Source of the DNA: Narcine bancroftii
Lineage: Eukaryota
DNA: 64,000 nucleotides
Direction of reading: 5' to 3'
Assembly: GCF_036971445.1 (NCBI RefSeq)
Contig: NC_091474.1
Coordinates: 137,020,001 to 137,084,000, forward strand
Position 1 is the stretch's first letter. Each line of letters starts with the position of its first letter. Made by a program: the position numbers and the translations under genes. The notes under the pieces were generated by a model. It ran no database searches. It saw only the letters and a program-made list of their open reading frames with translations, and was not told where the DNA came from. Shown here one piece after another: positions 1,900-48,561 of the stretch.

Positions 1900-4800
1900 A
1901 AGAGATGGAGGTTTGTGGTCAGTATTCTCCGACATATTTTATGTATGGTTCCCAAATTTGTTCGAATAATGTACACTTGTCTTTCAGATTGTATATAATT
2001 TTTTTCTAATGGAATACACTTGTTTATTTCTGTATACCACTGTTTCCATTTTCTAGGTTGTCATAATACATTTTTTTGCAACTGCTAATGCTATCATCAT
2101 AAATCTTATTTGAGCTCTGTCTAATTTTAATCCTAATATTTTTGTCTCATATTATTTAACAGAATTTTTAAAAATCTTTTGGTATATTATTTTTTGTGAT
2201 TTTGTTTAACATTAGGTTTAGATCTTCCCAGAAAGTTTTTACTTTTTAACATGTCCAAATTACATGTAATGTTGTTCCAGTCTCTTGTTTACAGCAAAAA
2301 TATCTATCCGATGCTGTTGGGTACCACTCTTTTAATTTCTGAGGAGTGATATATAATCAATGTAGCCAGTTATATTGTATCCTATGTAATCTACTATTTA
2401 TCGTGTTCCTCATTGTTCCTAAACATAACTTCTCCCATGTTTCATTCTTTATCTCTATGTTTAAATGTTTTTCCCAACTTTGTTTCAGTTTATACTTTGT
2501 TTCATCCTCTTCCTTATATTGCAATTTGATGTACATATTGGTAATAAATTTTTTAATTTTCATTGTGTCTGTGATTAGATATTCATAGTTTCTACTTTCT
2601 GGTTGTCTCAAGCTAGTTCCCAGTTTACCTTTTAAATAAGTTTTCAATTGGTAATATGTAAACATTGTACCATGTGTTATTCCACATTTATGTTTTAATT
2701 GCTCAAATGTTAATAAATTATTTCCCAAAAAGCAATTTTCTATTTTCTTGATTCCTTTTCTATCCCATTCCTTGAAAAATAAATTATCTATTGTAAAGGG
2801 GATTAATGGGTTTTGTGTCAATAACATTTTTGGTATTTGATAATTTATCTTTTTCTTCTTCCAGGTGTATTCTTTTTCCATAATTTAAGTATGCGATGTA
2901 GTACTGGTGAATTGTTGTATTCCACCAATTTTTCATCCCATTTATAAAGTATGTGCTCCAGGATATTTTCTCCCAATTTGTCTAATTCTATCTTAGTCCA
3001 GACTGGTTTTCCTCCTCTCTGATAAAAATCTGTTAAGTACCTTAACTGCACTGCCCTGTAGTAATTTTTGAAGTTTGGTAGCTGTAAGCCCTCCTTCTTT
3101 GTCACTCCATGTTATTTTTTCTAGTGCTATCTTGATTTCTTACCTTTCCATAAAAATTTCTTTACTATTTTCTTCAGTTTTGCAAAATATTTTTCTGTCA
3201 GGGGAATTCGTAACATTTGGAATAGATATTGCACTCATGGGAACACATTAATCTTAATACAGTTTACTCTTCCTATTAAAGTTAACAGTCCTTCTTTCCA
3301 ATTCTCTAAATCTTCCTGTATTTTTTAAATTAATGGTTCATAGTTTAATTTGTATAAATGTTTTAGGTTGTTATTAATTTTGATACCAAGGTATTGTATT
3401 GCCTGTGATTGCCATTTTAAATGGGTTTGTTTTTTTAAATTCTGAATAATCCACTTTGTTCATTGGCATCACTTCATTTTTATTGGTGTTAATCTTGTAC
3501 CCTGATATCTCTCCATACTCTTCCAGTTTCGTATATAGTTTTTTTTATTGACTGATCTGGTTCAGTTAAATATACTATGATGTTGTTTGCAAATAGGCTG
3601 ATTTTATATTCTTTGTCTTTTATTTTTATTCCATTTATCAGTTTCCTTCCTTATCAATTCCGCCAGTGGTTCAATAACCAAAGCGAATAGTGAAAGGGAT
3701 AATGGGCATCCCTGTCTTGTTGACTTGCTTAATTTTAAGTGATCTGATACATATCCATTTATTACTACCTTTGCTAATGCTCTAATCCAGTTAATAAATT
3801 TTTCCGGTTGTTTAAATTTCTGTAACACTTTAAACAAATAATTCCACTCTACCCTGTCGAAGGCTTTCTCTGTGTCTAATGTAACAGCTACCATTGGCCT
3901 TTTATTTAATTGTGCTGCATGAATTAAATTGACAAGTTTGCAAACATTATCAGCTGCCCGTCTTTTTTTAACAAATTCAGTTTGGTCTTGCCTTACTAGT
4001 TTCGGTACACAGTCATTCAGCCTGTTTGCTAGTAATTTTGCTATTAATTTATAATCTGTATTCAATAATGATATTGGTCTGTATGATGTTGGCAATAGTG
4101 GGTCTTTTCCCTCTTTCAAAATTACTGTGATTATTGCTGTTTTACATGATACTGGTAAGTTTTGTGTATTTTCCACCTGATTCATTACTTCTAGGAGGGG
4201 AGGGATTAATAGATTCCTAAAAACTTTATAACACTCTATAGGGAATCCAACTTCACCTGGTGTTTATTGTTTGTTAGTTTCCCATTCAGAGCCAGCTCTT
4301 CAGCGCTTGACGTCCTGTTTTGCGGAAACTGCCAAAATGTTTGGCCTGGAAGTCAGCCTGAAGAAAACTGAGGTCCTCCATCAGCCAGCTCCCCACCATG
4401 ACTACCAGCCCCCCCACATCTCCATCGGGCACACACAACTCAAAATAGTCAACCAGTTTACCTATCTCAGCTGCACCATTTCATCTGATGCAAGGATCGA
4501 CAGCGAGATAGACAACAGACTCGCCAAGGCAAATAGCGCCTTTGGAAGAGTACACAAAAGAGTCTGGAAAAACAACTAACTGAAAAACCTCACAAAGATT
4601 AGCGTATACAGAGCCGTTGTCATACCCACACTCCTGTTCGGCTCCGAATCATGGGTCCTCTACTGGCATCACCTATGGCTCCTAGAACGCTTCCACCAGC
4701 GTTGTCTCCGCTCCATCCTCAACATTCATTGGAGCGACTTCATCCCTAACATCGAAGTACTCGAGATGGCAGAGGCCGACAGCATCAAATCCATGCTGCT

Positions 4801-6598
4801 GAAGATCAAACTGCGCTGGGTAGGTCACGTCTCCAGAATGGAGGACCATCGCCTTCCCAAGATCGTGTTATATGGCAAGTTCTCCACTGGCCACCGTGAC
4901 AGAGGTACACCAAAGAAGAGGTACAAGGACTGCCTAAAGAAATCTCTTGGTGCCTGCCACATTGACCACCGCCAGTGGGCTGATATAGCCTCAAACCGTG
5001 CATCTTGGCGCCTCACAGTTCGGCGGGCAGCAACCTCCTTTGAAGAAGACCGCAGAGCCCACCTCACTGACAAAAGACAAAGGAGGAAAAACCCAACACC
5101 CAACCCCAACCAACCAATTTTCCCCTGCTACCGCTGTAACCGTGTCTGCCTATATGCATCGGACTTGTCAGCCACAAACGAGCCTGCAGCTGACGTGGAC
5201 ATTTACCCCTCCATAAATCTTTGTCTGTGAAGCCAAGCCAAAGTTTCATTAATATATCCTATACTTCTTCAGTCTTAAAAGGTTCTGTCAGTTTATTTTG
5301 TTCTTCTATTTGTGGATGTGGTAGTTCAATATTAGATAAAAATTCATCAGTTTTGTAACTTTTTTCCTATATTTTCAGTTTGGTATAATTGTTTAGAATT
5401 TTTTTAAATTTTCATTAATCTCCAATGAATTATATGTGATCTGCTTTTCATCTTTTCTTGTCGCTAGAATGGTTCTTTTAGCTTGTTTTGTTTTAAGTTC
5501 CCTGGCCAATATTTTGTGTGTTTTCTCTCCCAGTTCATTATATTTTTCTCTACTTTATATGTTTGTAGTGTTTCATATTTTAATTTTTTCTTTGCCAGTT
5601 CTATTTTTTTCTCTGTATCTTCTCTTTTCGCTAATTCCTTTTCTATAATTGTTATCTTTTCTTTTCCCAACTGTTCTACTGCCCAATTATACTTCTTTTT
5701 AATTTTAGTCATATAGCTATTTGTCCTCTAATAAAGGCCTTCATTGTATCCCATAAAATTAATTTATTTTTTACCGATTCCATATTTATCTCAAAATATA
5801 TTTTAATTTGCTGTTCAATATATTCTTTGAAATCTTGTCTTTTTAACAATGTAGGGTTTAGTCTCCATCTCTATGTCTTTGGTGGGATATCCTCTAATTC
5901 AATTGTTAATAACAATGGAGAGTGATCAGATAATAATCTTGCTTTAAATTCTGTTTTTTAAACTCTCCCTTGGATCTGTGCCGATAACAAAAACATGTTG
6001 AGTAGGTCTTATGTCTATTTGAGTAGTATGAATATTCTCTCTCTTTTGTGTGTTGCTTCCTTCATATATCAATTAGTTTCATATCCTGCATTGCTTTCAG
6101 TGTAAATTTAATTACCTTATTCTCATTGTTAATTGTCTTCCCAGTTTTGTCTATCATTGGGTCAAGGTTGAAGTTGAAATCCCCTCTTAGCAACATATAT
6201 CCCTGTGTATCTGCTATCTTTAGGAAGATGTTATGCATAAATTCCTGACATTCTTTGTTAGGTGGATAGCTGTTTAGTAAATTCCAAAATTCTGAATAAA
6301 TCTGGCACTTTGTCATTACATATCTGCCTGCTGGATCTGTTATTATTTCCTTTATATTGATTGATAAATTTTTGTTGACTAATATAACTACTTCCCTGGA
6401 TTTTGAATTGTATGATCATGCCACTACATGACCTACCCATTCTCTCTTCAATTTACTATGTTCTATCTCGGTTAAGTTTGTTTCTTGCACAAAAGCAATG
6501 TTGATTTTCTCTTTTTTTAGTAATGTCAATAACCTCTTCCTTTTAATTTAGTTGTGTAATCCATTAATGTTTATGGTCATGAAATTTAATGTACCCAT
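1900..6598 (-). pseudogene. L1 ORF2 (APE endonuclease - RT - C-terminal domain), frameshifted, with stops
   Basis: Start MGTLNFMTININGLH at 6598; GDFN endonuclease motif (6062-6316); RT motifs YRPISLLNTDYK, LDTEKAFDRVEW, TRQGCPLS (3604-4185); GLQLPNFKNYY; end coordinate approximate. Confidence 0.88.
4282..5243 (+). mobile_element. RTE-clade (BovB-like) LINE, 5'-truncated, inserted antisense in L1 ORF2
   Basis: FGLEVSLKKTEVL, LRWVGHVSRMEDHRLPK, C-terminal CxxC; tail agccaagccaaag; 6-bp TSD agtttc at 4276-4281 and 5242-5247. Confidence 0.92.
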
Positions 6599-8913: not shown

Positions 8914-9248
8914 CAGGGTTGGCATCAGAACAAGTCTAACTGGGGGGCATTAGGGTAACTGAGGAGGGCTCAATCTGACATTCAAAAACTCGCTCAGCTG
9001 GGGGAGTAGTGGTGCCTACCTACCATGAACCTCCTCTGTGTGCCGCCGCCATCACACTTCCTCCTCCCTCTGACATAATAGACAAATGAATGTTTATATC
9101 GCATGGAGACGAGTGACGCTAGTGCTATGAGTGGGGGAGTGTCACAATACCTCATTTGATGGAACAATGGCCACGAGCAAGTGGGAGGTCACAATGCCTC
9201 ATTTGGGGGGGTGATGCCTGCGATTGCCTCTCCTTTGCACTGGCCCTG
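8914..9248. mobile_element. Non-autonomous hAT-type DNA transposon (MITE)
   Basis: Imperfect TIRs cagggttggcat / gcactggccctg; 8-bp TSD atttgtga (8906-8913) vs atttttga (9249-9256), one mismatch. Confidence 0.65.
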
Positions 9249-9612
9249 ATTTTTGAGTGCTCTTTTCCCATTATACAAGCAAGTTAGATGGAGTTAGAAG
9301 AGGATAGAAACTTTGGGGTGAGTAGTGCGACAGAAAGCACTCAAGACCAGAGAGAGTACAACACACTTTTATTCATTAAGAATGGCACACATGGTCTGTG
9401 GACTGAACTGGGGTTTCGTCAGGGGTGCAGGGTTTATATCGGGATGATATGGGGGTGGAGTCAGGGGAGGAGCCAGTTCTTGGAGTATCGCACCTGCAGT
9501 GAATTCCCAGTTCACTACATTCATCCCTTTTGAATGAAACCTGTGGGTGAAAACAGAGAACATCGGATAGTCAAAAAAAATTACAATATTGACAGGTTCA
9601 ACCTGTCAGGAG

Positions 9613-9787
9613 GTCTGGAAATGTGGGCAGAGAGCCACAGTGTTGGCTGGCCCTGGGCTTCCTGACCCTCCTGTGTTTACGGGGCCTTAGGGCACAGGTG
9701 ATCCAGCTCTGATTGAGGGGTGGCTGGAGCCACTTCTTGCGTCAGCTCACCTGTGTCCCTGAATAGGTCTGAGTCCTGGCCCCCTTG
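9613..9787. repeat. 175-bp direct duplication of element A sequence (copy 1; copy 2 at 12797-12971) flanking element B
   Basis: The two copies align without gaps, about 14 substitutions counted by eye. Confidence 0.9.
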
Positions 9788-9790
9788 GAA

Positions 9791-12700
9791 TGTGATAGTA
9801 CAGATTCTATCACCAATGTGTATATGTACATATGTACAGATGGTAGTGTAGGATGACTGCGATTGGCTGAGAGTGTAGCCACACCTACTGGCAGGTCTTA
9901 AAAGGAATGCTCCTCGCCAGACCAGGTCATTCTGGACTGGTCGACCTACTTGTGATATGCTCCAGTCTTTTAGTTAATAAAAGTCTTGGTTTGGATCAAC
10001 AAGTCTCTTGTTCTTTCGATGCGCATTCCCTTCAAAAAGAAATTTTGAAGGGATGGAGCATATGCTACGGCTGGAATGCCTCGACATCGACCCACAGTCA
10101 GCTATAGCCTCAAATGACTTTAAGCACTGGGTGAGGTGCTTCAAAACATACTTACAGCTCTCTGATCCTGCCGTGATAGAGGACAGCCATCAACTACTAA
10201 TATTGATGATTATGGTGTCCCCGAGAGTCTAGCAGAATGCCCAGGATGCGACTACTTACGCCGCAGCCATGAAGGTGCTGAAAGGGCTCTATGAGCGACC
10301 AATGAACAGGGTCTATGCTCGGTACACACTCGCTACAAGGAGGCAACAGCCCAGTGAGTCCTGTAAAGCTTATATTCAGACAGTAAGGGCAATGGACAGG
10401 GACTGTGCCTGCACAGACAGAACTGCTGCGGAGACCACAGACGATCTCATTCGGGATGCCTACATGGCCGGGGTTCGATCGAATGAGGTGAGGCAGCGCC
10501 TGTTAGAGCACGGGGGAGAAAACCTAGAGGATGTGATCCAGATTGCAGAGACGATGGAGGCTGCGGTCTTAAGTATGGACATGTACTCTCGGGGCTGGAC
10601 CCCACACTCTGATGTGAGTAGGATCCCTCCCTCTACCCAACTACTGTTGCTACGCTGCCCGATGCAACCCCAAAGTGTTATTTCTGCGGGAGGAACAAGC
10701 ACAGCAGGTCCCAGTGCCCGGCGAGAAAAACTAGGTGCCAGAAGTGCCTTAAAAACTGGTATTGCTGCAGTCTGTCATTTCAAAATGGCCGCCGTCAAAC
10801 ACAGTGCCTCATGTGAAGCCAAATCGCCACTCTCCATTTCAAACACTTCTTCCTCAGAGCTCTCATCCAATGAGAGTGAGGACTCCACCACACGGCAGCG
10901 CCTGACGTCACGGGGCAGACGCCAAGGGCGCAAGGTACAACCCACCCTCGCCGCAATGACATTCACCCTAATGTCCGACCAGGCCCCAGCCCCGACCTCA
11001 ACTTCCGCCGCTGCTGCCACCCACCAGGGACCCGTCAATGCCGACCAGAGACCCGCCGCTGCTGACCAGGGACCCACAGCCGCCGCCGACCAGGGACCCA
11101 CCGCCACCGCCACTGACCAGGGACATGTCGCTGCCAACTGGGGAACTGCCACTGCCGACCGGGGACCTGCCACTGCCTCCAGGGTCCTGAGAGCCGAAAC
11201 TCCTCTGTCGAGAAGGAGGCCCAGGCCATAGTCGAGGCAGTACGTCGTTGGAGACGCTACCTCACTGGCAGGCGCTTTATGCTGCTGACTGACCAACGTG
11301 CTGTCAACTTCATGTTTAGCAATTCCCAGCGAGATAAGATCAAGAATGACAAAATCGCCAGGTGGAGAATCGAGCTCTCCACCTTGAATTATGACATACG
11401 ATATCGGCCAGGTCAACTCAATAATCAGCCAGATGCACTCTCCAGGGGGACTTGCGCCACATGCAACTGGACAGGTTACAGAAACTCCATGAGGAGCTCT
11501 GTCATCCAGGGGTCACTAGGTTCGCGCACTTTGTCAAATCTCGCAACCTGCCCTACACGGTTGAGGAGATTCGCTTAATGACCCGGGCCTGCCCAGTGTG
11601 CGCTGAGTGCAAGCCCCACTTCTTCCATCCGGAGAACACCCATGTCATCAAAGCCACCGGCCCCTTTGAGCATCTCAGCGTAGACTTCAAGGGGCCCTTA
11701 CTGTCGACCAACTGTAACACCTACATCCTTATGGCCATCGACAAGTACTCCTGCTTCCCTTTCGCTGTGCCTTGCTCGGTCATTACTTCCTCCTCAGTCA
11801 TAGAGGCCCTGCACAGCATCTTCGCCATCTTCGGGTACCCCAGTTACATTCACAGTGACAGGGGGTCCTCGTTTATGAGCGCGGAGCTGCGGCAGTACCT
11901 TCTGGAGCATGGTATTGCTTCAAGTAGGACCACCAGCTATAAACCATGTGGTAATGGGCAAGTCGAAAGAGACAATGCCACCATCTGGAAAGCAGTTACG
12001 CTTGCCTCCGGTCCAAAGGTCTCCCCACCTCTTGCTGGCAGGATGTGCTCACTAGTGCCCTACACTCCATCCGCTCCATCCTATGCACCGCGACCAATGC
12101 CACCCCCATTGAAAGGATGTTCTCTTTCCCGAGGAAATCTGAGTCAGGTACGACCATACTGGCATGGCTCACGGTTCCCGTTCCAGTCCTTTTACGACGT
12201 CACGTCCGGTACTCTAAGAATGACCCCTTGGTTGATTGAGTGACTCTGCTCCATGCGAACCCGCATTATGCCTACGTTGAGTACCTAGACGGACGGGAGG
12301 ACACAGTCTCAGTAAGGGACCTAGCCCAAGCTGGATCAGATGCAGCAGTGCCTTTAACCCCACCTCCCCCTATTCCTTCTCTCCCAGGTTATGTGCTTGA
12401 ACAGAGGGACCAGCAACACCCTATCAGCTCAGGCCAGACTGTCGACAACGGCATTGGGAATTGAGCGAAGCAGTGGCCGCACCCTACAGGCCTGCCAGCG
12501 ACACAACTCCGGCGACCCCAATCCCGGCGCCAGATGGTCAGACCCCCTGACCGGTACAGCCCCTAACCTCCATTCACACTGGGGTCGGTTCTCAAAGAAG
12601 GGGTGAATGTGATAGTACAGATTCTATCACCAATATGTACAGATGGTAGTGTAGGATGACTGTGATTGGCTGAGAGTGTAGCCACACCTACTGGCAGGTC

Positions 12701-12796
12701 TTAAAGGATTGCTCCTAGCCAGACCAGGTCATTCTGGACTGGTCGACCTACTTGGTTTGGATCAACAAGTCTTTGGTTCTTTTGACGTGCATTACA
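9791..12796 (+). mobile_element. Gypsy element B, internally deleted (gag + RNase H end + integrase; no protease or RT), nested antisense in A
   Basis: LTRs 9791-about 10027 and 12608-12796 (TG...CA); PPT aaagaaggggtgaa 12594-12607; gag MEHMLRLECLDIDP from 10053 joined at about 11200 to EKEAQAIVEAV; integrase HPGVTR...CPVC, VDFKGP, HSDRG, GNGQVER. Confidence 0.9.
11020..11180 (+). repeat. Degenerate 24-27 bp tandem repeat in the gag C-terminal region (ADQGPxAA)
   Basis: About six units of gccgaccagggacccaccgcc-like sequence, visible in ORF 10269-11231. Confidence 0.75.
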
Positions 12797-15700
12797 GTCT
12801 GAAAATGTGGGCAGAGAGCCACAGTGTCGGCTGGCCCTGGGCTGCCTGACCCTCCTGTGTTTATGAGGCCTTGGGGCATGGGTGATCCAGCTCTGATTGA
12901 GGGGTGGCTGGAGCCACTTCCTGCGACAGCTCACCTGAGTCCCTGAGTAGGTTGGAGTCCTGGCCCCCTTGAGGTGGTGGACTCTCAGTTCCATCGGGTG
13001 CCAGGTCCCTAAACGAGACAGTGTCCTCCCTGCCATCTAGGTATGCCTCAAATGTGTAAATGAGGATGGCATGGAGTAGGTGTACCTTCTCGACCAAGGG
13101 GTCGGATTTGCTCCTCTTTACGTGCTTTCGGAGCAGCACTGATCCTGGTGCTGTAAGCCAAGCTGGGAGGGTTGTCTCTGACATTGACTTTCTAAAGAAA
13201 ACATCAGCTTGTGAGGAGTCACATTAGTTGCAGTGCAAAGTAGTAACCTAATGGAGTTGTGCGCCATGGGTAGGACATCCTGCCAGTGTGAGACTGGAAG
13301 TCCTTTGGACTGGAGGGCTTTTACGGCCTTCCAAACCATAGCATTCTCCTTCTCAACCTGTCCGTTCCCCCGGGGGTTATAGCGAGTCGTCCTACTGGAT
13401 GCAATGCCTTTCACCAGCAGAAACTGGTGCAGCTCTTTGCTCATAAATGATTTGCTCCAGTCGCTATGGATATAACCAGAATACCCAAACAGGGCGAAAA
13501 TAGTCTAGGGCCCTAGTGACGGATGGCGTGGATGTGTCTGGGCAGGGAATAGCGAACAGGAAACAACAGTACTCATCAATGACAGTGAGAATGTACATAT
13601 TCCCATTTGAAGAGGGGAGGGGTTCCACTGAGCCAAAGGGCTTGGATGCCTTTATCAGGTGTGTCTTTTTGGGACAGTAGAAGTGTGGCTTGCACTCTGC
13701 ACAGACCTGGCATGACCTGTCATTTCCCTGACATCCTCAATTGAGTAGGGTAAATTGCGTGCCTTGACAAAATGAGCCATGTGAGTGATGCCTGGATGGT
13801 GGAGTTCATTGTACAGTGACCGCAACAGGACGACATGTGCAGAGGCACAGCTTCCTCTGGACAGGGCATCTGGAGGCTCATTGAGAGTACCAGGTTGGTA
13901 GACTATGTTGTTGTAGGTGGAAAGTTCGATCCTCCACCTAGCAATTTTGTCATTTTTAATTTTGCCTCATTTTATGTTGTTGAACATTAAAGCCACCGAT
14001 CGCTGGTCCGTGAGGAGGGTGAATTTCCTAACCACCTGGTAGTGCTTCCAGTGCCTGATAGCCTCTACAATGGCTTGTGCCTCTTACTGCACTGATAGCT
14101 TCCGAAGCTCTTGGAAAAAAATGCAACCTGCCTACCGACCTGATTAAGGGTTGCAGCCAGAGCTACGTCTGAAGCATTGCTTTCCACCTGGAAAGGTACA
14201 TTTTCGTCCACCCCATGCATGGTGGCCTTTACAATGTGTCTTCTGACACAGTTGAAAGCTGTTTGAGCTTCGGCTGTCAATGGAAAATAAGTGATTTTTA
14301 AGAGGGAACGGAACTTGACCTCATATTGAAGGACCCATTGGGCGTAATATAAAATAAAGTCCAGGCACCTCGGGATCAGGAGTTCCAACAGGGGATGCAA
14401 CCTGTTGGGGTCAGGGCCCAATGATGCCATTCTCCACCACGTAGCCCAAGATGGCTAGACATCTAGTCCCGAATACACATTTACTGGTGTTGTAAGTGAG
14501 GTTCCCGGCTTTAGCTGACTGGTGAAAGTTCTGGAGGTTGGCGTCATGGTCCTCCAGAGTGTGGCCACAAATGGTAACATTGTTGAAGTATGGGAAGGTG
14601 GCCTTCAACTTAAATTCGTCTAACATTCGGTGCATCTGTCTCTGAAAGATTGAGACTCCATTCACGATACCAAATGGAACCCTCCGGAACTGACAGAGTC
14701 TCCCGTTAGCCTCAGAAGTGGTGTTGGGATGGTTCTCAGAATGAATTGGCAACTGGTGGTAAGCAGCTTTAAGGTTGATGGTTGAATAGACCTTGTACTG
14801 CACAATTTCATTCACTATGTCTGAAATGTGAGGGAGGGGATATGTGTCCAGAAGTGTGAAGCGATTAATAGTTTGGCTATAGTCAATTACTAACCTAGAC
14901 TTTTCTTCCCCTTTTACAACAACCACCTGTGCTCTCCATAGGCTGGTACTGTGCTCGATAATGATCTCATCAAGCAGTCGTTATGTCTCAGCCTTGATGA
15001 ATGCCCGGTCCTCTGCACTGTAGCACCTGCTTTTTGTAGCAATTGGTCTTCAATAGATGCTCAGATTGGGGAACAGAGGAGGTGGATCTATATTCAGTGT
15101 TGTCAGACAGCAAATGACATCAGAATTTTGAGACCTTCTGTTCCAATCCATAATGGGAGGAAGAGGACCAGAATACTTCAGGGCCACTTTGTTAAAGTGA
15201 CAAGGAGTCAAGACCCAGCAAAACTAAAGCACATAAATTCTTAAGTACATACAGTTTGAACTTACAGAAGTCCCCCTCCTGTAAAGATAAATGAACCATA
15301 CAATGTTCTTGAATATTTAGACTGCATATGATATGCTAAATAAATACTCTAATTAGTGGGATACACTTTGAGATTGAGATTTTGAACTGTCTCTGTGTCT
15401 ATGAAGCTCTCAATTGAGCCAGAGTCAATTAAGCATTTCAATTTATGCCTGTTTACCCACACCTTTGTTGTGGAATTGTTCAGTTGGTATGGTATCTCAT
15501 GGTTCAACACTATCGCTGCCAAGATTCCGGAGATGCCATCATTCCCCTCATTGGAGTCACTCTCCCCGTTCGGATCCTCATGCAGGCAAGATGGTGGGGG
15601 CCACAAGTTTCAGCAAGATAGCAGCCCTCCTCCTCCTCCTTCCACCCATTGTAAATGGTGCAGAATTTGAATGCAAGCAAGATGGTGGTGACCACGTGGT

Positions 15701-18249
15701 GCAGTAAGATGGCTGCGCTCCCTCCTCATTGGATGAAGGTGGTGCCAGTTTCAAAATGTGGCAGGATGGCTTCCAAGTTTTCCAGCTTTGCTTCTCTCGC
15801 TGCGTGGCCCTGCAGCAAGGCCATGGTGTACAACACTAGCACTGGGAGGCCGGGGGTTTGGGTTTTGGGCTCGCCTCAGTTGGCCCATTAGGGGTCGCTC
15901 ACACTTTGAACCTCTCAGCACTTCCCCTCACCCTGTAGACTTTCACCCAATACCCCTTTCCACAACCGGAGCAGTTGGAGTCTTTAGCAGGACATCGAGT
16001 TCTTGGGTGCTGTTGCCGACCGCAGAAGAAGCATTCCTTAGTGCCCAAGGCTGCCATCGTTAAAGCCGATGCAACATGTGGCACCATTCTGGGACTTAGG
16101 TCCTCATGAAGGGTGCTGCTGCCTTCTAAATTGTCAGCCCCAAGTTGGGCCATCTCTAGTGACTTGGCCAGTAGTACATTCTCAGGAAGTGCCGCGCTGC
16201 CTTTCTCCAGCAACTGTTGCTGAATGTATTTGGACCACTCTCCAGTGACCAGAGCATCCTGGATCTGCTCATCCTCCTGTTCTCTGTCCATGCTGTCCTC
16301 ATATCTGCAGTTCCTCACAAGTGCCCGTAGGCTGAGGACATAGTCCTCCAATGGACTTAACTGGCCGCTGCTTCCATTGTGAGAGTTGATGCCGCGCTAA
16401 GACAATGTTTTGGGGCCTCGTGTAGTGGGCCTTCAGCTTCTCAACAGCCACTGCATAAGTCGTACAGTCCCTGATGATCGGGAATCCTTTAGGTCCAACC
16501 CAAGAGAGGAGCGCTGACCTCTTGAGCTCATCCATTGAGTAGACCTCTTACGTGGCTGTCAGGTACATTTGGAAGCACCCCAGCCAATATGTGAACTCTT
16601 CCAGGGCCTCCAGGGACAGAAGTTCGATGAGGAGCATTGCAGACTTTAACAGTGCTTCCATCCCATTCTTTATTGAACAAAATTGTTGCGTGACAGAGCG
16701 CACTCAAGACCAAAGAGAGTACAACACGCTTTTATTCAATAAGAATGGCACACATAGTCTGTGAACTGAACTGGGGTTTTGGAGAGGTCCAGGGTTTAAA
16801 TCAGGATATGCCGGGGTGGGGGGGGGGGGGGCGGGGGGGGGGGCGGGTAGAGTCTGGGGAGGAGCCAGTCCTTAGAGCATCGCACGAGTAGTGAATTCCC
16901 AGTTCACTACAGGGTGGTATTGGAAGGCAGGATAGACTTAATATTTTAAGGAACCAAAATATAAGAGAAATGGTAAAACACCTGCAGTGAACAGTAGAGT
17001 AGCTACAAAGTCTTGAATGGCCACTTCCTGCTTCTACTTATAAGTAAGGTTGTGTGGCTTGTAAAGCAGGGGTCACGTTTGTTCTTTGCTGGGCCCTCAT
17101 TTCTGTGAGGGGGCTGGACAAAATGGTGACAAAGTTAAAGAATTTCATGGATGTTACATTCTAAATGTAGTATTACATGACAATAATGGAACCTTTACCT
17201 TGACCTTTAGTGTTAGTCATTTGAGTTCTCAGGGATCATCTTATGGTTTTGGAAATTCATCCTAAATTTCTGAGGATTTCATAGTCATAAGCATCAAGCC
17301 ACGCAAAACAGGCATTTTGGCCCTCACATCCATGCTAACCACCTTTAGCAATTCAGTGCATGTCAGTGATGTAACGGGATTGGGTGAGGAATAGAAGAAT
17401 TATTAGGAGGTGAATGAGCCTGAAGGAGAATAGGGGAAGCATCTGAAGATAGTTTCCGGAACTAGTTGTGTTTTGTTACCTGCTTGGGAAGGTTACATGT
17501 AACTTGTGGAAGGTCTTTCATCTACGGTGAAAAAATGTCTATGCATGCATTTTGTGGTAATTCACAGATGTAATATCCAGCCAAAAATCTATTTGTTGGA
17601 GGAAATCAGCGGGTCAAGCAGCATCAATGGGAGAAAAATGGATGATGTTTCATATTGAAACCTTCATCAAGACAAGACTGCTGAAGACCACTATACATAT
17701 CCAAGTATGAGTGCTTTAGATCCAAGGAAAATCAAAGGATAATTAGACTGAGGTCCAGACCATGATTCCCTGGCTTTTAATGGCTTTTTTTTTCATAGAA
17801 ATTCTATTGCAGTGTGCACTGAACTGTATGATTGGATTTCCCAGACAGTGTATATTGTTTAGCTGACACTGTCTCAAGTTTCTTCTGCTGTTAGCTTTTT
17901 CTTCTGTTTGGGTAAATTACCTTCAACCTCACTAAACATTTAATCAATATATTTTCATCCAATATCTAAGCAAATTGTTATTTTGACCAGATTGTATTCT
18001 TTTTAATAGATGGTTTATGATAAGTTGTTCTACAGATGTATATAACTCTTTAAGACTTTTTTTCTTCCTGTTCTGGAACTGTGTTTTAAACTGAACTGTG
18101 AAATTGTAAATATTCCATTATTAAAATAAAATGGTATTCTTCATTTTCACTACCACCGAGGAATTCAATCCAAACACTAGGATCTGGTTGTCAGAATCAA
18201 ATGAGTCTTATCCCATTTTCTTGACTAAGTTGAATCATTTGTTTTTATT

Positions 18250-18606: not shown

Positions 18607-20013
18607 TTCTTCTCTTTGGCTTGGCTTCGCGGACGAAGATTTATGGAGGGGTAAATGTCCACGTCAGCTGCAGGCTTGTTTGTGGCAGACAAGTCCGATG
18701 CGGGACAGGCAGGCACGGTTGCAGCGGTTGCAGGGGAAAATTGGTTGGATGGGGTTGGGTGTTGGGTTTTTCCTCCTTTGTCTTTTGTCAGTGAGGTGGG
18801 CTCTGTGGTCTTCTTCAAAGGAGGTTGCTACCCACCGAACTGTGAGGCACCAAGATGAACGGTTTGAGGCGATATCAGCCCACTGGCAGTGGTTAATGTG
18901 GCAGGCACCAAGAGATTTCTTTAGGCAGTCCTTGTACCTCTTCTTTGGTGCACCTCTGTCACAGTGGCCAGTGGAGAGCTTGCCATATAACACAATCTTG
19001 GGAAAGCGATGGTCCTCCATTCTGGAGACGTGACCTACCCAGCGCAGTTGGATCTTCAGCAGCGTGGATTTGATGCTGTCGGCCTCTACCATCTCGAGTA
19101 CTTCGATGTTAGGGATGAAGTCGCTCCAATGAATGTTGAGGATGGAGCAGAGACAACACTGGTGGAAGCGTTCTAGGAGCCGTAGGTGATGCCAGTAGAG
19201 GACCCATAATTCGGAGCCGAACAGGAGTGTGGGTATGACAACAGCTCTGTATATGCTAATCTTTGTGAGGTTTTTCAGTTGGTTGTTTTTCCAGACTCTT
19301 TTGTGTAGTCTTCTAAAGGCGCTATTTGCCCAGGGGAGTCTGTTGTCTATCTCGTTGTTGATCCTTGCATCTGATGAAATGGTGCAGCCGAGATAGGTAA
19401 ACTGGTTGACCGTTTTGAGTTTTGTGTGCCCAATGGAGATGTGGGGGGGCTGGTAGTCATGGTGGGGAGCTGGCTGATGGAGGACCTCAGTTTTCTTCAG
19501 GCTGACTTTCAGGCCAAACATTTTGGCAGTTTCCGCAAAACAGGACGTCAAGCGCTGAAGAGCTGGCTCTGAATGGGCAACTAAAGCAGCATCGTCTGCA
19601 AAGAGTAGTTCACGGAAAGTTGCTCTTGTGTCTTGGTGTGAGCTTGCAGGCGCCTCAGATTGAAGAGACTGCCATCCATGCGGTACCGGATGTAAACAGC
19701 GTCTTCATTGTTGAGTTCTTTCATGGCCTGGTTCAGCATCATGCTGAAGAAGATTGAAAAGAGGGTTGGTGCGAGAACGCAGCCTTGCTTCACGTCATTG
19801 TTAATGGAGAAGGGTTCAGAGAGCTCATTGCTGTATCTGACCCGACCTTGTTGGTTTTCGTGCAGTTGGATAACCATGTTGAGGAACTTTGGGGGGCGTC
19901 CGAGGCGCTCTAGTATTTGCCAAAGCCCTTTCCTGCTCAAGGTGTTAAAAGCTTTGGTGAGGTCAACAAAGATGATGTAGATTCCTTTGTTTTGTTCTCT
20001 GCACTTTTCTTGG
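18607..20013 (-). mobile_element. RTE-clade LINE, 5'-truncated
   Basis: QEKCREQN, FVDLTKAF, VKQGCVLAP (19581-20030) and a 295-aa C-terminal ORF (18664-19551); tail agccaagccaaagagaaga; no clear TSD. Confidence 0.92.
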
Positions 20014-21474: not shown

Positions 21475-24400
21475 TGTGGTGGTACACCACCAGCCTACTG
21501 CAGGGGGCGACCTCTGTACCTGCAGAAGAACACGGGAGGACAGGGCAACACCTGGCTGGCTGTCAATCAGCAAATCTGAATGGACAAGCTCCAACTGGTT
21601 GGCTGTCAATCACCCTCTGGGCTATAAGCTGCGTCCGGCCATTTCAGAGTCAGTTTCAGAGCTTGCACCAGTAGTCTCACAGCTAGTTCGGTGAAGGTTT
21701 AAGTTGAATAAAGCCTGTAGAACAGACTTTATGTTTTGTGTGTTTGCTTCTGTTCGATAGCACACCACAATTTATTCAATTTAAAATTTAACGTTGTGAT
21801 GGAGAAGTTCCTCAGTGCCGGGAGCCTCAAAATCGACCCACGCCACCTGGAAGCACAAGCACGCTTTGAGATCTGGAAGCACACGGTTGAAACGATCATA
21901 GAGGCTCACACCGATGACATCCTAGACTCCGACCGGAAAAGGCTCATTTTACTCCGATTGAACCTGGGCCCCCGGACCTTCCAGGCTCTCAAACATTGCA
22001 CCGGGTACTCAGATGCGAGGAACACCATCGAGATCAATGTACAAACCTCCCACGAATGTGGTTTTTGCAAGGTATCTCCTAAATATCCATGCCCAGCTGC
22101 CCGTGGAGACGACTGAGTCCTACCTGGGAGTCCTGCGTGAGTTTGCCCAACCTTGTCTGGCTGAACCCAGGGTAAATGAAAGGGAGGTCGCGAGACTGAT
22201 CAAGGATGCCTACAACTGGGAGCTACGTGCGAAAGCAGTCAGGCAGAAGCTGCTAGAGGACGATATCTACTCCCTAGCCAAAACAGTGGAAGTAGTCTGA
22301 ACCCTGGAGGCAGCAGCCCTGCACACCAAAGCCTTCGACTCCAGCTTCCCCAGGCCTCCACATGGTCAGCACACTCGGCTGCTGTGGCCCTAGACCAGAT
22401 TGGGGACAAAAACATCGCTGCTGCAGGCACCCAGCGCTCTTGTAAGTACTGTGGGTCCCAGTGTGGGTATGATCGTCAATCACGCCAAAACTGCGTGACC
22501 AGAAACCAGTAGTGTTCGAGATGTGGCAAGAAAGGCCACTTAACTAAAGTATGCCTCTCAAAGCCTGCCGGGAGCTCAGCGGCCCTCTACGACCTGCTCC
22601 CCTCCCGCGAATCCCCGCCACATGTGATTGCCAGGCGACGCCATTGCCCTCGCAGGTACTTCCAGCCTCTCCAGCTTCCGTGGCCCAACTTCTGGCCTCG
22701 CCATCAATGATCGCTGCGTGCACGCCATACATTCGGACCAGCTTTTGCTGAGCACGAAGTCTACAGTGACGTCACTTCCGGTTCACGGAATGATGTCACT
22801 TCCGCCACACGTCAACCTCGCCGACGGCGTGACGTCACTTACCCTGGCACAAACAACACAGCTGGGGAAAAGGTCAGCCTTACCCTGTACTCCCATGTGG
22901 CGCCGACATCTTAGGCTGGTCAATCCCAGGCACCACCGCCACCTGGGACCTCCCAGGCCTACAACAAAGTTGGTATTGATGATGATGACGACATGGTCAA
23001 CATGAGTGCTGACCAGGCCACCCTACTGATACACCCCAGACTTCTGCACACCGCAGATCCCTGCCCACCGCACCACATGCTTATGGAGAGCACCACCGGT
23101 CAACACTCACCTCTCATGATGCCTGCTGAGGATGCCACCGGCCACGACTCCCCTCCACCAACAGGGAACGATGACTCAGATGCTGAGATAGTCCTAGCAG
23201 CCACTACCCTGACCAGGGACATCCCCCATGGCCTCGGGTGCTCCATGATGGACATTAAAATCAATGGACAGGTAACAAAGTGCCTAATCGACAGTGGCAG
23301 CACTGAGAGTTTCATTCACTGAAGCTAAAAATCCACCCCACCACCTTCTCTATCGCCTTCGCCACCCAGGACTGCACTATCAATACCTCAGGTGCTGCTC
23401 GGCCGATCTGACTGTGGGGTGGGGGTAGACATACACCGGGTTTAGGCTCCTGGTCATGCCCAAACTCTGCGCCCCAGTCCTCCTGGGTTTAGACTTCCAA
23501 TGCCACCTGCAGAGCAGCACCCTTGCCTTCGGGGGGCCCCTAACCCCACTCACGCTCCACAGCGTGCCGTCCAACCAGCCCCGGCCAACCTGCAGCCTCT
23601 CCACGCTGCGCATCACCTCTTCCCCGTGCTCTTCTCACACCTCACACCAGACTGCAAGCCAATAGCCGCCAGAAGTAGGCGCTATTGCACCGCAGACAGA
23701 GACTTCATCAAGGCAGAGGTGCAGCGGCTTCTGGCGGAAGGTGTCATAGAGCCCAGTAACAGCCCATGGAGAGCCCAAGTCCTGGTGATCAAAGGGGGCA
23801 GCAAGCCAAGAATGGTCATGGATTACAGCCAGACCATCAACCGGTACACCCAGCTGGATGCCTACCCCTTACCAAGGATAGCCAACATGGTCAACGAGAT
23901 AACCCACTACCAGGTCTTCTCCATAAATGACATGAAGTCAGCCTATCACCAACTCCCCATCCACCCACGGGACAAGCCTAATACAGCCTTCGAGGCAGAT
24001 GGGTGCCTGTACCAGTTACACCGAGTTCCGTTTGGGGTCACAAATGGGGTCTCCATCTTCTAGCGGGAGATGGATCGTATGGTAGACTGGCACAAACTGA
24101 AGGCAACTTTCCCATACCTGGATAATGTCACCAACGGCAGCCACGACCAGCGGGACAATGATGAAAACCTGGAGAAATTTACCGGAAAGCTGAGGAGCTG
24201 AACCTTACTTTGGACAAAGGGAAGTCCATGTTCAGCACCACCCGCCTTGCCATCCTGGGGTGCATCATGGCACATGGTGTAATCGGCCCAGATCCAGGAC
24301 AGATGCGCCCATTAATGGAGCTGCCCCTCACCCCATGCTCAAAGCCCTCTGCAGGTGCCTTGGCTTATTATCCTACTATTCACAGTGGGTTCCCCGCTTC

Positions 24401-36730: not shown

Positions 36731-37090
36731 ACAGTGGACCCAGCACTGATCTCTACAGCACATCACTCGTCACAGGGCTTCAATTTGAATAACACCAACC
36801 CCTTTAAGAATTCATTATGTGCAACATGGTGATAGATTGTCCTGGAAAATATGTGACCAGGAAAGAAAGTCATATCTTTAACTTATATTTATACATTTAT
36901 GCACATACATACATGCACACATCTTTAAATTTATTTGCACTGGCAACTTTACTTATAGCTGCTGAGGCCCTAGCTCTGGAATTCTCCATCCACTCTCCTC
37001 TGTGGAGTCCTATGGTCATGGTACCATGTTAAGGCCATCACATCATGTTTTTGTGGACATCTCTGTGCTAATTTGTTATCTGCTATAGGC

Positions 37091-38345
37091 ACGAAAACCA
37101 ACAAGGTCGGGTCAGATACAGCAATGAGCTCTCTGAACCCTTCTCCATTAACAATGGCGTGAAGCAAGGCTGTGTTCTCGCACCAACCCTCTTTTCAATC
37201 TTCTTCAGCATGATGCTGAACCAAGCCATGAAAGACCCCAACAATGAAGACGCTGTTTACATCCGGTACCGCACGGATGGCAGTCTCTTCAATCTGAGGC
37301 GCCTGCAAGCTCACACCAAGACACAAGAGAAACTTGTCCGTGAACTACTCTTTGCAGATGATGCCGCTTTAGTTGCCCATTCAGAGCCAGCTCTTCAGCG
37401 CTTGACGTCCTGCTTTGCGGAAACTGCCAAAATGTTTGGCCTGGAAGTCAGCCTGAAGAAAACTGAGGTCCTCCATCAGCCAGCTCCCCACCATGACTAC
37501 CAGCCCCCCCACATCTCCATCGGGCACACAAAACTCAAAACGGTCAACCAGTTTACCTATCTCGGCTGCACCATTTCATCAGATGCAAGGATCGACAATG
37601 AGATAGACAACAGACTCGCCAAGGCAAATAGCGCCTTTGGAAGACTACACAAAAGAGTCTGGAAAAACAACCAACTGAAAAACCTCACAAAGATAAGCGT
37701 ATACAGAGCCGTTGTCATACCCACACTCCTGTTCGGCTCCGAATCATGGGTCCTCTACCGGCACCACCTACGGCTCCTAGAACGCTTCCACCAGCGTTGT
37801 CTCCGCTCCATCCTCAACATCCATTGGAGCGCTCACACCCCTAACGTCGAGGTACTCGAGATGGCAGAGGTCGACAGCATCGAGTCCACGCTGCTGAAGA
37901 TCCAGCTGCGCTGGATGGGTCACGTCTCCAGAATGGAGGACCATCGCCTTCCCAAGATCGTATTATATGGCGAGCTCTCCACTGGCCACCGTGACAGAGG
38001 TGCACCAAAGAAAAGGTACAAGGACTGCCTAAAGAAATCTCTTGGTGCCTGCCACATTGACCACCGCCAGTGGGCTGATAACGCCTCAAACCGTGCATCT
38101 TGGCGCCTCACAGTTTGGCGGGCAGCAGCCTCCTTTGAAGAAGACCGCAGAGCCCACCTCACTGACAAAAGGCAAAGGAGGAAAAACCCAACACCCAACC
38201 CCAACCAACCAATTTTCCCTTGCAACCGCTGCAATCGTGTCTGCCTGTCCCGCATCGGACTGGTCAGCCACAAACGAGCCTGCAGCTGACGTGGACTTTT
38301 TACCCCCTCCATAAATCTTCGTCCGCGAAGCCAAGCCAAAGAAAG
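37091..38345 (+). mobile_element. Young RTE-clade LINE, 5'-truncated, with intact reading frame
   Basis: Perfect 6-bp TSD ataggc (37085-37090, 38346-38351); tail agccaagccaaagaaag. Confidence 0.95.
37159..38289 (+). CDS. RTE reverse transcriptase C-terminal part (376 aa open, N-terminally truncated, probably not expressed)
   Basis: KQGCVLAP, LLFADD catalytic motif, FTYLG, LRWMGHVSRM, C-terminal CNRCNRVC...SHKRAC. Confidence 0.85.
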   Translation: MKQGCVLAPTLFSIFFSMMLNQAMKDPNNEDAVYIRYRTDGSLFNLRRLQAHTKTQEKLVRELLFADDAALVAHSEPALQRLTSCFAETAKMFGLEVSLKKTEVLHQPAPHHDYQPPHISIGHTKLKTVNQFTYLGCTISSDARIDNEIDNRLAKANSAFGRLHKRVWKNNQLKNLTKISVYRAVVIPTLLFGSESWVLYRHHLRLLERFHQRCLRSILNIHWSAHTPNVEVLEMAEVDSIESTLLKIQLRWMGHVSRMEDHRLPKIVLYGELSTGHRDRGAPKKRYKDCLKKSLGACHIDHRQWADNASNRASWRLTVWRAAASFEEDRRAHLTDKRQRRKNPTPNPNQPIFPCNRCNRVCLSRIGLVSHKRACS

Positions 38346-46217: not shown

Positions 46218-48561
46218 TGTGGTGGTACACTACTGGCCTACTGCAGGGGGAAACTTCTGTACCTGCAGAAGAGCATGGGGATAAGACAACACCTGGCCGG
46301 CTGTCAATCAGCTGACCTGAATAGACCAAGCCCCACCCGGTCGGGTGTCAATCACTCTCTGGGATATAAGCCTGAGCCAGCCCTTCGAAGACACTCTCGG
46401 AGTTTACAGCAGCTCTCCTCACAGCTGGATCTGTGGAAGTTCACGTTGGATGAAGTCTGTTGTACAGACTTTAGGTTTTGTGTGTTTGCTTCTATCCAAT
46501 AGTGCACCACAATTTATTCAACATAAATTCTTAAAGCTGCTATGGAAAAGCTCCTGAGCGCTGGGAGCCTCAAAATTGACCCACGCCACCCGGAAGCACA
46601 AACACGCTTTGAGATCTGGAAGCACACAGTCGAAGCGATCATCGAGGCACATGTCGATGATATCCTGGACTCCGATCGAAAGAGGCTCATCTTACTCCGA
46701 TCAAAGCTGGGTCCCCAAGCCTTCCAGGCACTCAAAGACTGCACCGGGTACTCAGAAGTGATGAACACCCTCAAGACCATGTATAAACTTCCCATGAATG
46801 TGGTCTTTGCAAGGTATGTCTTGAGTATCTGTGCCCAGCTGCCCGGAGAGATGGTCGAGTCCTACCTGGGAGCCCTGCATGAGTTGAACCGACCTTGTCT
46901 GGCTGAACCTGGGGTAAATGAAAGGGAGGTTAAGAGGCTGATCAGAGATGCCTATGTCCGAGGGCTACACGCGAGAGCAGTCAGGCAGAAGCTGCTGGAG
47001 GACAATATCTACTCCCTGGCCAAAGCAGTGGAGGTAGTCCGAACCCTGGAGGCAGCTGCCTTGCACACTGAAGTCTTCGAATCCAGGCTTCCTCAGGCCT
47101 CCACATGGTCAGCACATTCGACTGCTGTGGCCCTAGATCAGGCTGGGGATGAAAACATCGCTGCTGTGGGTGCCCAGCACCCTTGTAAGTACTGTGGGTC
47201 CCAGCGTGGGTCTGATCGTCGATCGTGCCAAAACTGCCCGGCCAAAAACCAGTACTGTTCGAGATGTGGCAAGAAAGGCCTCTTCACCAAAGTATGCCTC
47301 TCAAAGCCTGCCGGCAGCTCAGTGGTCCTCTACAACCTCCTCCCTCCCTCACGATCCCCGCCACATGTGATTGCCGGGCAATGCCATTGCCCCCACAGCC
47401 ACTTCCAGCCTCCCCAACCCCAGCGGCCCAACTGTTGGCCTCACCGGCAATGATCGCTGCATGCATGACATGTTCCCGACCTGGCCTTCGCTCTCACCAG
47501 CGCCGCCTCCAGAAGACTACAACGACACCACTTCCGGTCTATGGAATGATGTCACTTCCACCAGCCTTGATGACGTCGCCCTCACCGACAGCCAGCGGCA
47601 TGATGGCACTTCCCTCAGCGCACTTAGCACAGCCGGGGAAGAAGGCCAGCCATGCCTTGATGCCATCGTGGGCCGGACAGGCGTGGGCGCCGCAGACACC
47701 GAGGCCCTCCCAGGCCTCCAACGATAACAACATGGTCAACACAGGCACTGACTAGGCCGCCCTACCGACACACCCTATGCATCTGGATGCCACTAACCAC
47801 CGCACACTGTACCTGACAACTACGGAGAGCACCACCAGTCAACACTCACCTCTCATGATCCCTGCAGAGGATACCAACAACCACAACTCACCTCCACCTT
47901 CGGGGAACAACAACTCAGACCCCAAGATGGTCCTAGCAGTCACCACCCTGATCAGGAACATTCCCCGTGATCTCTGGCGCTCCATGATGGACATAAAAAT
48001 CAATAGGCAGGTAACAAAGTGCCTAATCGACAGTGGCAGCACCAAGAGTTTCATTCATCCAAGCACAGCCCACTCCCTAAAGTTAAAAATCCATCCCACC
48101 ACCTTCTCTATCGCCTCTGCCACCAAGGACCGGACTATCAATACCCTCGGGCGCTGCTTGGCCGATCTGACTGTAGAGGGGGGGGGAGATACATACACTG
48201 GGTTCAGGCTCCTGGTCATCCCCAAACTCTGCGCCTCAGGTCTCCTGGGTTTAGACTTCCAATGTCACCTGCAGAGCATCACCCTCGTCTTCGGGGGGCC
48301 CCTGCCTCCACTCACACTCCAAAACGCGCCGTCCAACCAGCCCTGGCCAACCTGCGGCCTCTCTGACCTGAATAGACCAAGCCCCACCCGATCGGGTGTC
48401 AATCATCCTCCGGGATATAAGTTGAGCCGGCCCTTCGAAGACACTCTCAGAGTTTATAGCAGCTCTTCTCACAGCTGGCTCTGTGGAAGTTCATGTCGAA
48501 TAAAGCCTGTTGTACAGACTTTAGGTTTTGTATGTTTGCTTCTGTCTGATAACCCACCACA
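46218..48561 (+). mobile_element. Gypsy element D (related to C), gag plus protease only, deleted into the 3' LTR
   Basis: Perfect TSD gagat (46213-46217, 48562-48566); 5' LTR 46218-46511; gag ORF 46542-47453 with CKYC / CSRCGKKG; LIDSGS; jumps into LTR sequence at about 48363. Confidence 0.92.

Follow-up and report, generated by a model that had tools for sequence, protein, structure and literature searches.

To our knowledge, Tf1 is the only element for which self-priming of reverse transcription has been shown; for its chromovirus relatives, as for a few plant lineages, it has been predicted. The Tf1 primer is 11 nt long and is released by RNase H cleavage. In HIV-1, AAUAAA lies in the base-paired stem of the polyA hairpin near the 5' end of the RNA, and a tRNA serves as the primer. 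According to the available parts of two reports (bioRxiv 10.1101/2022.12.06.519325, PMC4600332), Tf1/sushi elements self-prime and their primer is located at the mRNA's 5' end. Self-primers are also predicted for plant Tcn1 and TAR in the available part of PMC6317226. Here, a lineage of Gypsy elements is described in which the bases after the 5' LTR complement a segment of the element's own LTR.

The window analyzed was a stretch of 64,000 nucleotides from Narcine bancroftii (NC_091474.1, positions 137,020,001 to 137,084,000), and all coordinates below refer to it. Element A, on the minus strand, is a decayed Ty3/Gypsy LTR retrotransposon. Its 5' LTR (16911-16684, 228 bp, TG..CA) and 3' LTR (9519-9321, ending in CT instead) were aligned with each other, a polypurine tract (9530-9520) precedes the 3' LTR, and the 5-bp target duplication CACCC (16916-16912 and 9320-9316) flanks the element. 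The coding region comprises gag followed by remnants of protease, RT, RNase H, and integrase in the Gypsy order, and the best solved relative was Ty3 Gag-Pol. It reaches approximately 12900; stops and frameshifts disrupt it, and another element, B, is nested within it. A very high-copy repeat was found at 16943-17200, directly upstream of the 5' LTR, where the contig depth far exceeded that of the element. Elsewhere in the window, three repeat copies with 94-97% identity (4274-5243, 18614-19863, and 37089-38305) showed a weak RT match and are probably a LINE.

The 5' LTR of element A ends in ..GCAACA at 16684, and it is followed by a single spacer A (16683), the leader TTTTGTTCAATAAAGAATGG (16682-16663), a G at 16662, and the gag start codon (16659..16661, with the ATG at 16661). 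The sequence thus agreed with the preliminary description in that 22 nt separate the LTR from the ATG and no TGG-type primer-binding site (PBS) adjoins the LTR; the leader begins with ATTT and does not carry the TGG site of tRNA-primed Mag-type Gypsy elements. The leader pairs with the LTR arm CCATTCTTATTGAATAAAA (16748-16730). The 19 pairs described earlier, with one G-U and one bulge, are present in element A, but they are partly accidental. Most copies of the element A family carry GAACGG, and the variants TGG and CAG are typical products of CpG decay; the G-U pair is a private change of this copy. Consequently, the conserved duplex comprises only the 13 bp adjoining the LTR, formed by the predicted PBS (16670..16682, including the G-U pair in this copy) and a 13-nt arm, the predicted self-primer (16730..16742), although the pairing reaches 16748 in element A. 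The arm ends in AATAAAA, with the AATAAA hexamer at 16731..16736, and a GT-rich stretch follows it. The 19-pair duplex of element A was present in the centroid fold as well as in the minimum-energy fold; the fold had z = -2.73, and of 200 shuffles 1 was as stable. The same arm and PBS were also present on the plus strand in element C, whose family has a different LTR (arm 21700-21712, PBS 21771-21783), and in element D (arm 46442-46454, decayed; PBS 46513-46525). The claim that the duplex can form only at the 5' LTR had to be narrowed to the period of RNA synthesis, as a second copy of the arm occurs in the 3' LTR of element A (9385-9367, hexamer 9373-9368). With the arm in both LTRs, a transcript probably contains one PBS but two arms.

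The conservation of this pairing was determined with leaders sampled from source-genome copies found with A, B, and C sequences and from metagenome contigs. In total, 157 leader stretches gave 146 unique ones, of which 142 passed a fixed LTR-end rule; the automatic rule failed for 4 of the 146 copies and misplaced L107 and L169, which were dropped to leave 140 copies. The complement was anchored at LTR+2 in the source-genome families A, B, C, E, and F, and all 21 metagenome elements with a readable LTR and leader carried it at the same place (34 of 67 loci examined, 13 without the region). The register of CA, one spacer A, and TTT.. was common to 17 family groups from the source genome and the metagenome contigs. 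In 74 of 142 copies, the match anchored at LTR+2 ran for at least 11 nt without a break, compared with 0.3-1.2% for shuffled LTRs, and, with mismatches allowed, at least 11 of the 13 positions were paired in 114 of 142 copies, compared with 0.19% for shuffles. There were 16 different perfect 13-mers among 53 copies.

To avoid circularity, the arm was then placed using positions 1-9 only, which was achieved for 111 of 140 copies. The family mean pairing was 0.94, 0.85, 0.96, and 0.92 at positions 10-13, and 0.63, 0.54, 0.48, 0.34, and 0.22 at positions 14-18. On comparing each PBS with the LTR of its own family, a mean of 12.7 of 13 positions matched, while the value for the LTRs of other families was 9.4, and 1 of 272 cross pairs reached at least 12.5. 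Representatives for the folds, the covariation test, and the slid registers were chosen as well-paired copies. Among the 17 hand-picked group representatives, positions 4-9 and 11-13 showed 2-4 pair types, and the covariation permutation test, which ignores relatedness, gave p < 0.01. Slid registers of these representatives paired at 49-93 of 221 positions, compared with 215 of 221 in the true register. Uncompensated states were also found: both LTRs differ from the PBS in L150 (at the second base from the primer end), L338, L345, and L078, and one mismatched PBS recurs in L039, L042, and L056. Overall, the comparison of aligned copies demonstrated a 13-bp complement with a fixed register, covariation, and a sharp end at position 13. 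The pairing proposed from a single element was therefore borne out across the 17 family groups by the fixed register and compensatory changes, and, on this comparative evidence, the duplex is a real, lineage-wide structure.

In a separate observation, a variant arm and its matching variant PBS sat in different copies with non-matching partners (L039, L042, L056, L017, L010, and the 3' LTR of element A in the window), suggesting that PBS and arm were inherited from different templates or that primers acted in trans.

In reverse transcription, plus-strand synthesis copies the primer into the PBS, and a PBS primed by the element's own arm is thus expected to be a faithful copy of it. Accordingly, the PBS was compared with both arms of the same element. 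Among 95 elements examined, 35 had no 3' LTR in the stretch, and 3 of the remaining 60 were dropped as misregistered, leaving 57 elements. At positions 1-13, the PBS and both arms were identical at 672 of 736 sites, and private differences occurred at 24 of the 736 sites in the PBS, 20 in the 5' arm, and 18 in the 3' arm. At positions 14-17, the PBS alone differed at 104 of 228 sites (46%). Therefore, at insertion, the 13-mer copied the arm as faithfully as one LTR copies the other, and this fidelity ended at position 13. Single-base swaps common to both LTRs and the PBS were also found within young families (L152, L067, B1/B2, and A1/A2), and that of L152 occurs inside a family of near-identical copies. 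Such swaps fit a primer that is copied back. However, we infer this copying rather than observe it, because some copies are uncompensated and the match could also be maintained by selection acting just on the duplex. Taken as a whole, self-priming in some form is highly probable in this lineage. Mag-type Gypsy elements of the same genome served as controls (L280-L284), and in all five the leader was TTGGC and the self-match to the LTR was 8-9 of 13. One Gmr1-type element, L286, has a leader that starts with TAATTTGGGG, no TGG adjoining the LTR, and a self-match of 10 of 13.

The lineage itself was characterized by its RT and RNase H. Its elements are approximately 4-4.8 kb long, and the intact metagenome ones have LTRs of approximately 150-260 bp and one frame of approximately 1200 codons. 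The nearest named RT relatives were from rays and sharks (63-70% identity), followed by those from corals, sea anemones, a snail, a nematode, a spider, and a tunicate. Further relatives occurred in flukes and tapeworms, several were present in Biomphalaria glabrata, and no relative was found in the viral contigs searched. A quick tree was computed from the RT/RNase H of 44 rows. All 33 rows of the lineage fell on one side of a branch with an SH-aLRT of 100 and, in this tree, stood apart as a clade of their own. The other rows, all from the source genome, were 2 decayed chromovirus-type, 3 Mag-type, and 6 Gmr1-type elements; this set contained no Tf1/sushi reference, and the order of the groups is left open. 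The chromovirus-type label denotes an SH3_Tf2-1 match together with a weak Chromo match in a similar locus, and 5 loci with fewer than 150 aligned residues or no match were left out of the tree. Assignment of the lineage to Mag was dropped after the tree and the TGG-PBS controls. As for a chromodomain, Pfam Chromo matched 0 of 32 full-length relatives at E 0.01, and PF00385 was absent among the matches listed. Biomphalaria glabrata carries five Cigr-1 families according to PMC6238403 supplement 3 part 2. Judged by host overlap alone, the lineage is probably the Cigr-1 clade of Gypsy (Ciona; molluscs), possibly together with Saci-2 of Schistosoma.

Two further features of the lineage were recorded. 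The RT motif is YxDN or FxDN instead of YxDD in 75 of 120 relatives (P0001-P0120). One of these, P0089, has a Gag start equal to that of the young elements L149 and L175, whose LTRs are 99-100% identical. Judging from these sequences, the second catalytic RT aspartate seems dispensable in the lineage; the YLDN motif was not found in the searched part of the PMC6238403 and PMC8556966 supplements. Element B, which belongs to the same lineage, is nested in element A at 9791-12797 on the plus strand, with its leader at 10028-10052. This copy has no LTR end or PBS and instead carries an inverted copy of the bases before the ATG, giving a 10-bp hairpin; its 3' LTR has no arm, while other B copies have a normal PBS. 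A 175-bp stretch of the 3' internal region of element A lies on both sides of B (9613-9787 and 12797-12971, 92%), with no short target duplication.

For the mechanism, the reading that we prefer, with a probability somewhat better than even, is that the 13 bases after the 5' LTR are the binding site for the element's own poly(A)-signal segment, an internal 5' arm that is cut at the hexamer and replaces a tRNA. Transcription would start approximately 30 nt after the TATA box, placing the arm 30-50 nt inside R. During synthesis of the leader, the arm and the PBS would pair, and a second helix would stack on the 3' end of the arm. The 5' AAUAAA would thereby be closed to the poly(A) machinery, while the 3' copy would remain open. 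In the particle, the RNA would be cleaved immediately behind the A-run, with the element's own RNase H as the probable nuclease, as in Tf1; the 3' OH left by this cut would point toward the spacer A and U5. The resulting strong-stop DNA would be short (47 nt in family A and 28-66 nt across families) and would jump to the 3' end by means of the 10-25 nt that separate the cut from the poly(A) site. Plus-strand synthesis would then copy the 13 nt of the primer into a new PBS, so that the match between PBS and arm would persist as families diverge. For a primer inside the RNA, both a cut in the RNA and a 13-nt ruler would be required, which are not described for Tf1.

The position of the transcription start separates this internal-arm reading from the exact Tf1 mechanism, in which transcription begins at the arm or slightly ahead of it, the RNA's first 11-13 bases act as the primer, and the 5' AAUAAA is silent because it lies near the cap. 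The 5' part of the arm is initiator-like, with the consensus T-Y-T-W-A-G-Y across the 17 groups, an A at position 11 in 13 of 17, a G at position 10 in 16 of 17, and a pyrimidine at position 13 in all 17. Judged by this motif, a start at the initiator-like A would give an 11-nt, Tf1-like primer, and run-off at the RNA 5' end would account for the sharp 13-nt limit. The 5'-terminal location of Tf1-group primers, as given in the available parts of bioRxiv 10.1101/2022.12.06.519325 and PMC4600332, also speaks for such a start. However, positions 12 and 13, which precede the initiator-like A, covary with the PBS and are thus likely to be in the RNA, and the invariant pyrimidine at position 13 points the same way. 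Moreover, TATA-like boxes lie upstream of the arm end by 67-72 nt in family A (27 of 38 well-paired copies), 84 nt in B (20 of 25), 86-90 nt in C (12 of 19), and 78-82 nt in E (9 of 15), which is too distant for a start at the arm. The exact Tf1 mechanism is accordingly considered unlikely.

The usual spacing from a TATA box to the start is approximately 30 nt, and the boxes in these families therefore suggest that the arm lies 30-50 nt inside the RNA, on promoter-motif grounds. In element A, the TATA-box position is 16795..16800, approximately 70 nt upstream of the 3' end of the arm, and reads TTTAAA, where most copies have TATAAA. From the sequence and this spacing, the start region is predicted at 16767..16773 (CAGTTCA), approximately 28-33 nt after the box. 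No TATA was found at the matching place in the metagenome families. Contigs from four runs, whose RNA status is a guess, showed no starts or ends when aligned over 9200-17200, and a pattern search for polyadenylated LTR retrocopies of families B and E returned 0, which is uninformative. None of the three results named in the preliminary description as refuting it, among them a start downstream of the LTR arm, was encountered.

Priming could alternatively come from the 3' copy of the arm. In this case, the 3' R would pair with the PBS, the tail would be trimmed or cut to the edge of the duplex, the template would be circularized, and the stretch upstream of the arm would serve as homology for strand transfer. 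The arm does occur in both LTRs, and the PBS is no worse a fit to the 3' arm (18 private differences) than to the 5' arm (20); the predicted 30-50 nt upstream of the arm would also be given a role. On the other side, the 5' arm lies 30-65 nt from the PBS, and it folds onto the PBS in 21 of 23 representatives (mean pair probability 0.66-0.99), so that it should occupy the site first; the duplex was not favored in the folds of L113 and L164. We know of no precedent among LTR elements for a 3'-end primer on a circularized template. Thus, priming by the 3' arm is regarded as quite improbable. The models with an internal 5' arm, a cap-proximal arm, and a 3' arm predict different strong-stop lengths and cap sites.

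The relation of the arm to the poly(A) signal was evaluated next to its pairing. In animal Metaviridae LTRs, no motif is better conserved than AATAAA with a GT-rich stretch behind it, as stated in PMC3601003. Of the 17 groups, 11 have an arm that ends in AATAAA or ATTAAA and the other 6 one that ends in a one-mismatch variant, and swaps between AATAAA and ATTAAA are compensated between arm and PBS. Two of the 6 non-canonical groups have a canonical hexamer outside the duplex, 6 nt (L143) and 27 nt (L154) downstream of the arm. When folded with the leader, the last six arm bases were unpaired at a probability of 0.01-0.09 in 21 of 23 representatives. Without the leader, the arm end was mostly open in 14 of 23 and mostly paired (unpaired at 0.35 or less) in 8 or 9. 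A switch acting at the 5' end only is therefore weakened, because the arm end was paired even without the leader in 8 of 23. The earlier proposal that one structure both primes and masks the poly(A) signal thus stands in its first part, where self-priming is backed by comparison, whereas the masking is plausible and only predicted. In the families of the source genome, these folds make it likely that poly(A) masking is a side effect, and, as read from the sequences, priming is the better conserved function. Identity of the arm as a splice acceptor or tRNA A-box was rejected, as neither was common to all groups by eye.

The bases past the arm were also examined by folding. They usually read R-C-C-T, and positions +1 to +5 were paired at 0.5 or more in 13-15 of the 17 groups, with a mean of 0.68-0.79 compared with approximately 0.5 for shuffles. 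The predicted second helix beside the arm therefore exceeds shuffles only moderately, and it recalls the Tf1 pretzel. In element A, it is predicted within 16688..16729, where GCGTG (16729-16725) would pair with CACGC (16692-16688); it would begin at the first base after the arm and enclose the remaining R and U5. In family E (L061-L080), inspection by eye showed that AATAAAAGC of the LTR has a second, LTR-internal complement, GCTTTTATT, in U5. Through this complement, a poly(A) hairpin like that of HIV could arise at both ends and compete with the PBS.

Given these hexamers, the duplex might act solely as a regulatory fold, either concealing the 5' poly(A) signal or governing gag initiation, with something else as the primer. 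The canonical or one-mismatch hexamer at the arm end with its compensated swaps and the start codon lying 16-54 nt from the LTR agree with such a role. However, masking needs neither the fixed one-base distance from the LTR end, nor the sharp 13-nt limit, nor a PBS that stays as similar to the arm as the second LTR is. The duplex is also kept in L143 and L154, where the canonical hexamer sits outside it, and the element would be left without a primer site. A purely regulatory duplex is accordingly given little probability. In a partial screen against tRNAs (30 loci; 28 ARAGORN-called sequences, 14 anticodons, with one call being an artefact), the best Watson-Crick match of the PBS was 5 nt, and the leader match to a host tRNA raised as a concern in the preliminary description was not seen. 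Priming by a host tRNA, or by a fragment of one, with an LTR match that is incidental, is very improbable, for although an internal part of tRNA-Lys(TTT) matches the B and E sites over 11 nt when several G-U pairs are allowed and the screen covered 14 anticodons, the site varies with the LTR of each family (16 perfect types), begins with TTT rather than TGG, and forms at most 5 Watson-Crick pairs with any tRNA tested.

Compared with the described systems, the lineage resembles Tf1 and Tf2 of Schizosaccharomyces pombe, Tj1, and the Tf1/sushi chromoviruses, as far as the available parts of their descriptions go, in the Ty3/Gypsy domain order, in a PBS that complements the element's own LTR, and probably in doing without a tRNA. 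A further duplex beside the primer, predicted here by folding, would have its counterpart in the Tf1 pretzel of those descriptions. Unlike Tf1/sushi elements, the lineage has no chromodomain, forms a separate RT clade in the quick tree, and has a duplex of 13 bp compared with the 11 nt of Tf1. Moreover, its arm ends in a poly(A) hexamer and, in the families of the source genome, is predicted inside R and not at the cap. The lineage thus probably works like Tf1 but, lacking a chromodomain, would not count as a Tf1/sushi member. As in the HIV-1 polyA hairpin, AAUAAA is predicted to be held in a stem near the 5' end; in HIV-1, however, both hairpin strands are in the repeat region and a tRNA primes, whereas the partner in this lineage is the PBS outside the LTR. 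Tcn1 (Gypsy) and TAR, Houba, and Osr-1 (Copia) differ in being plant elements of chromovirus or Copia type, and the available part of their description mentions no link to the poly(A) signal. Among the literature titles covered, none dealt with self-priming in this lineage or tied self-priming to the poly(A) signal; most subscription journals, Repbase, GyDB, and the Cigr-1 and Saci-2 descriptions were outside this scope, and a prior mention is possible.

The full proposal is that a pan-animal, non-chromovirus Gypsy lineage primes with its own poly(A) signal, using an internal 13-nt R segment that ends in AAUAAA, with 5' polyadenylation silenced, a cut at the hexamer edge, and copy-back in each cycle, independently of Tf1. 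We advance this combination tentatively, at a little less than an even chance. If it is true, a single duplex would settle two difficulties of LTR elements, the need for a primer and the presence of two poly(A) signals. Should the poly(A) signal be the primer, there would be a compact explanation, open to testing, of how the 5' poly(A) signal of an LTR element is ignored. Tools requiring a tRNA PBS would misread the elements of this lineage. The lineage is abundant in the source genome and has relatives in cnidarians, molluscs, flatworms, nematodes, a spider, and a tunicate. If the self-priming holds, tRNA-independent priming would be common in animals and either arose more than once or is ancient.
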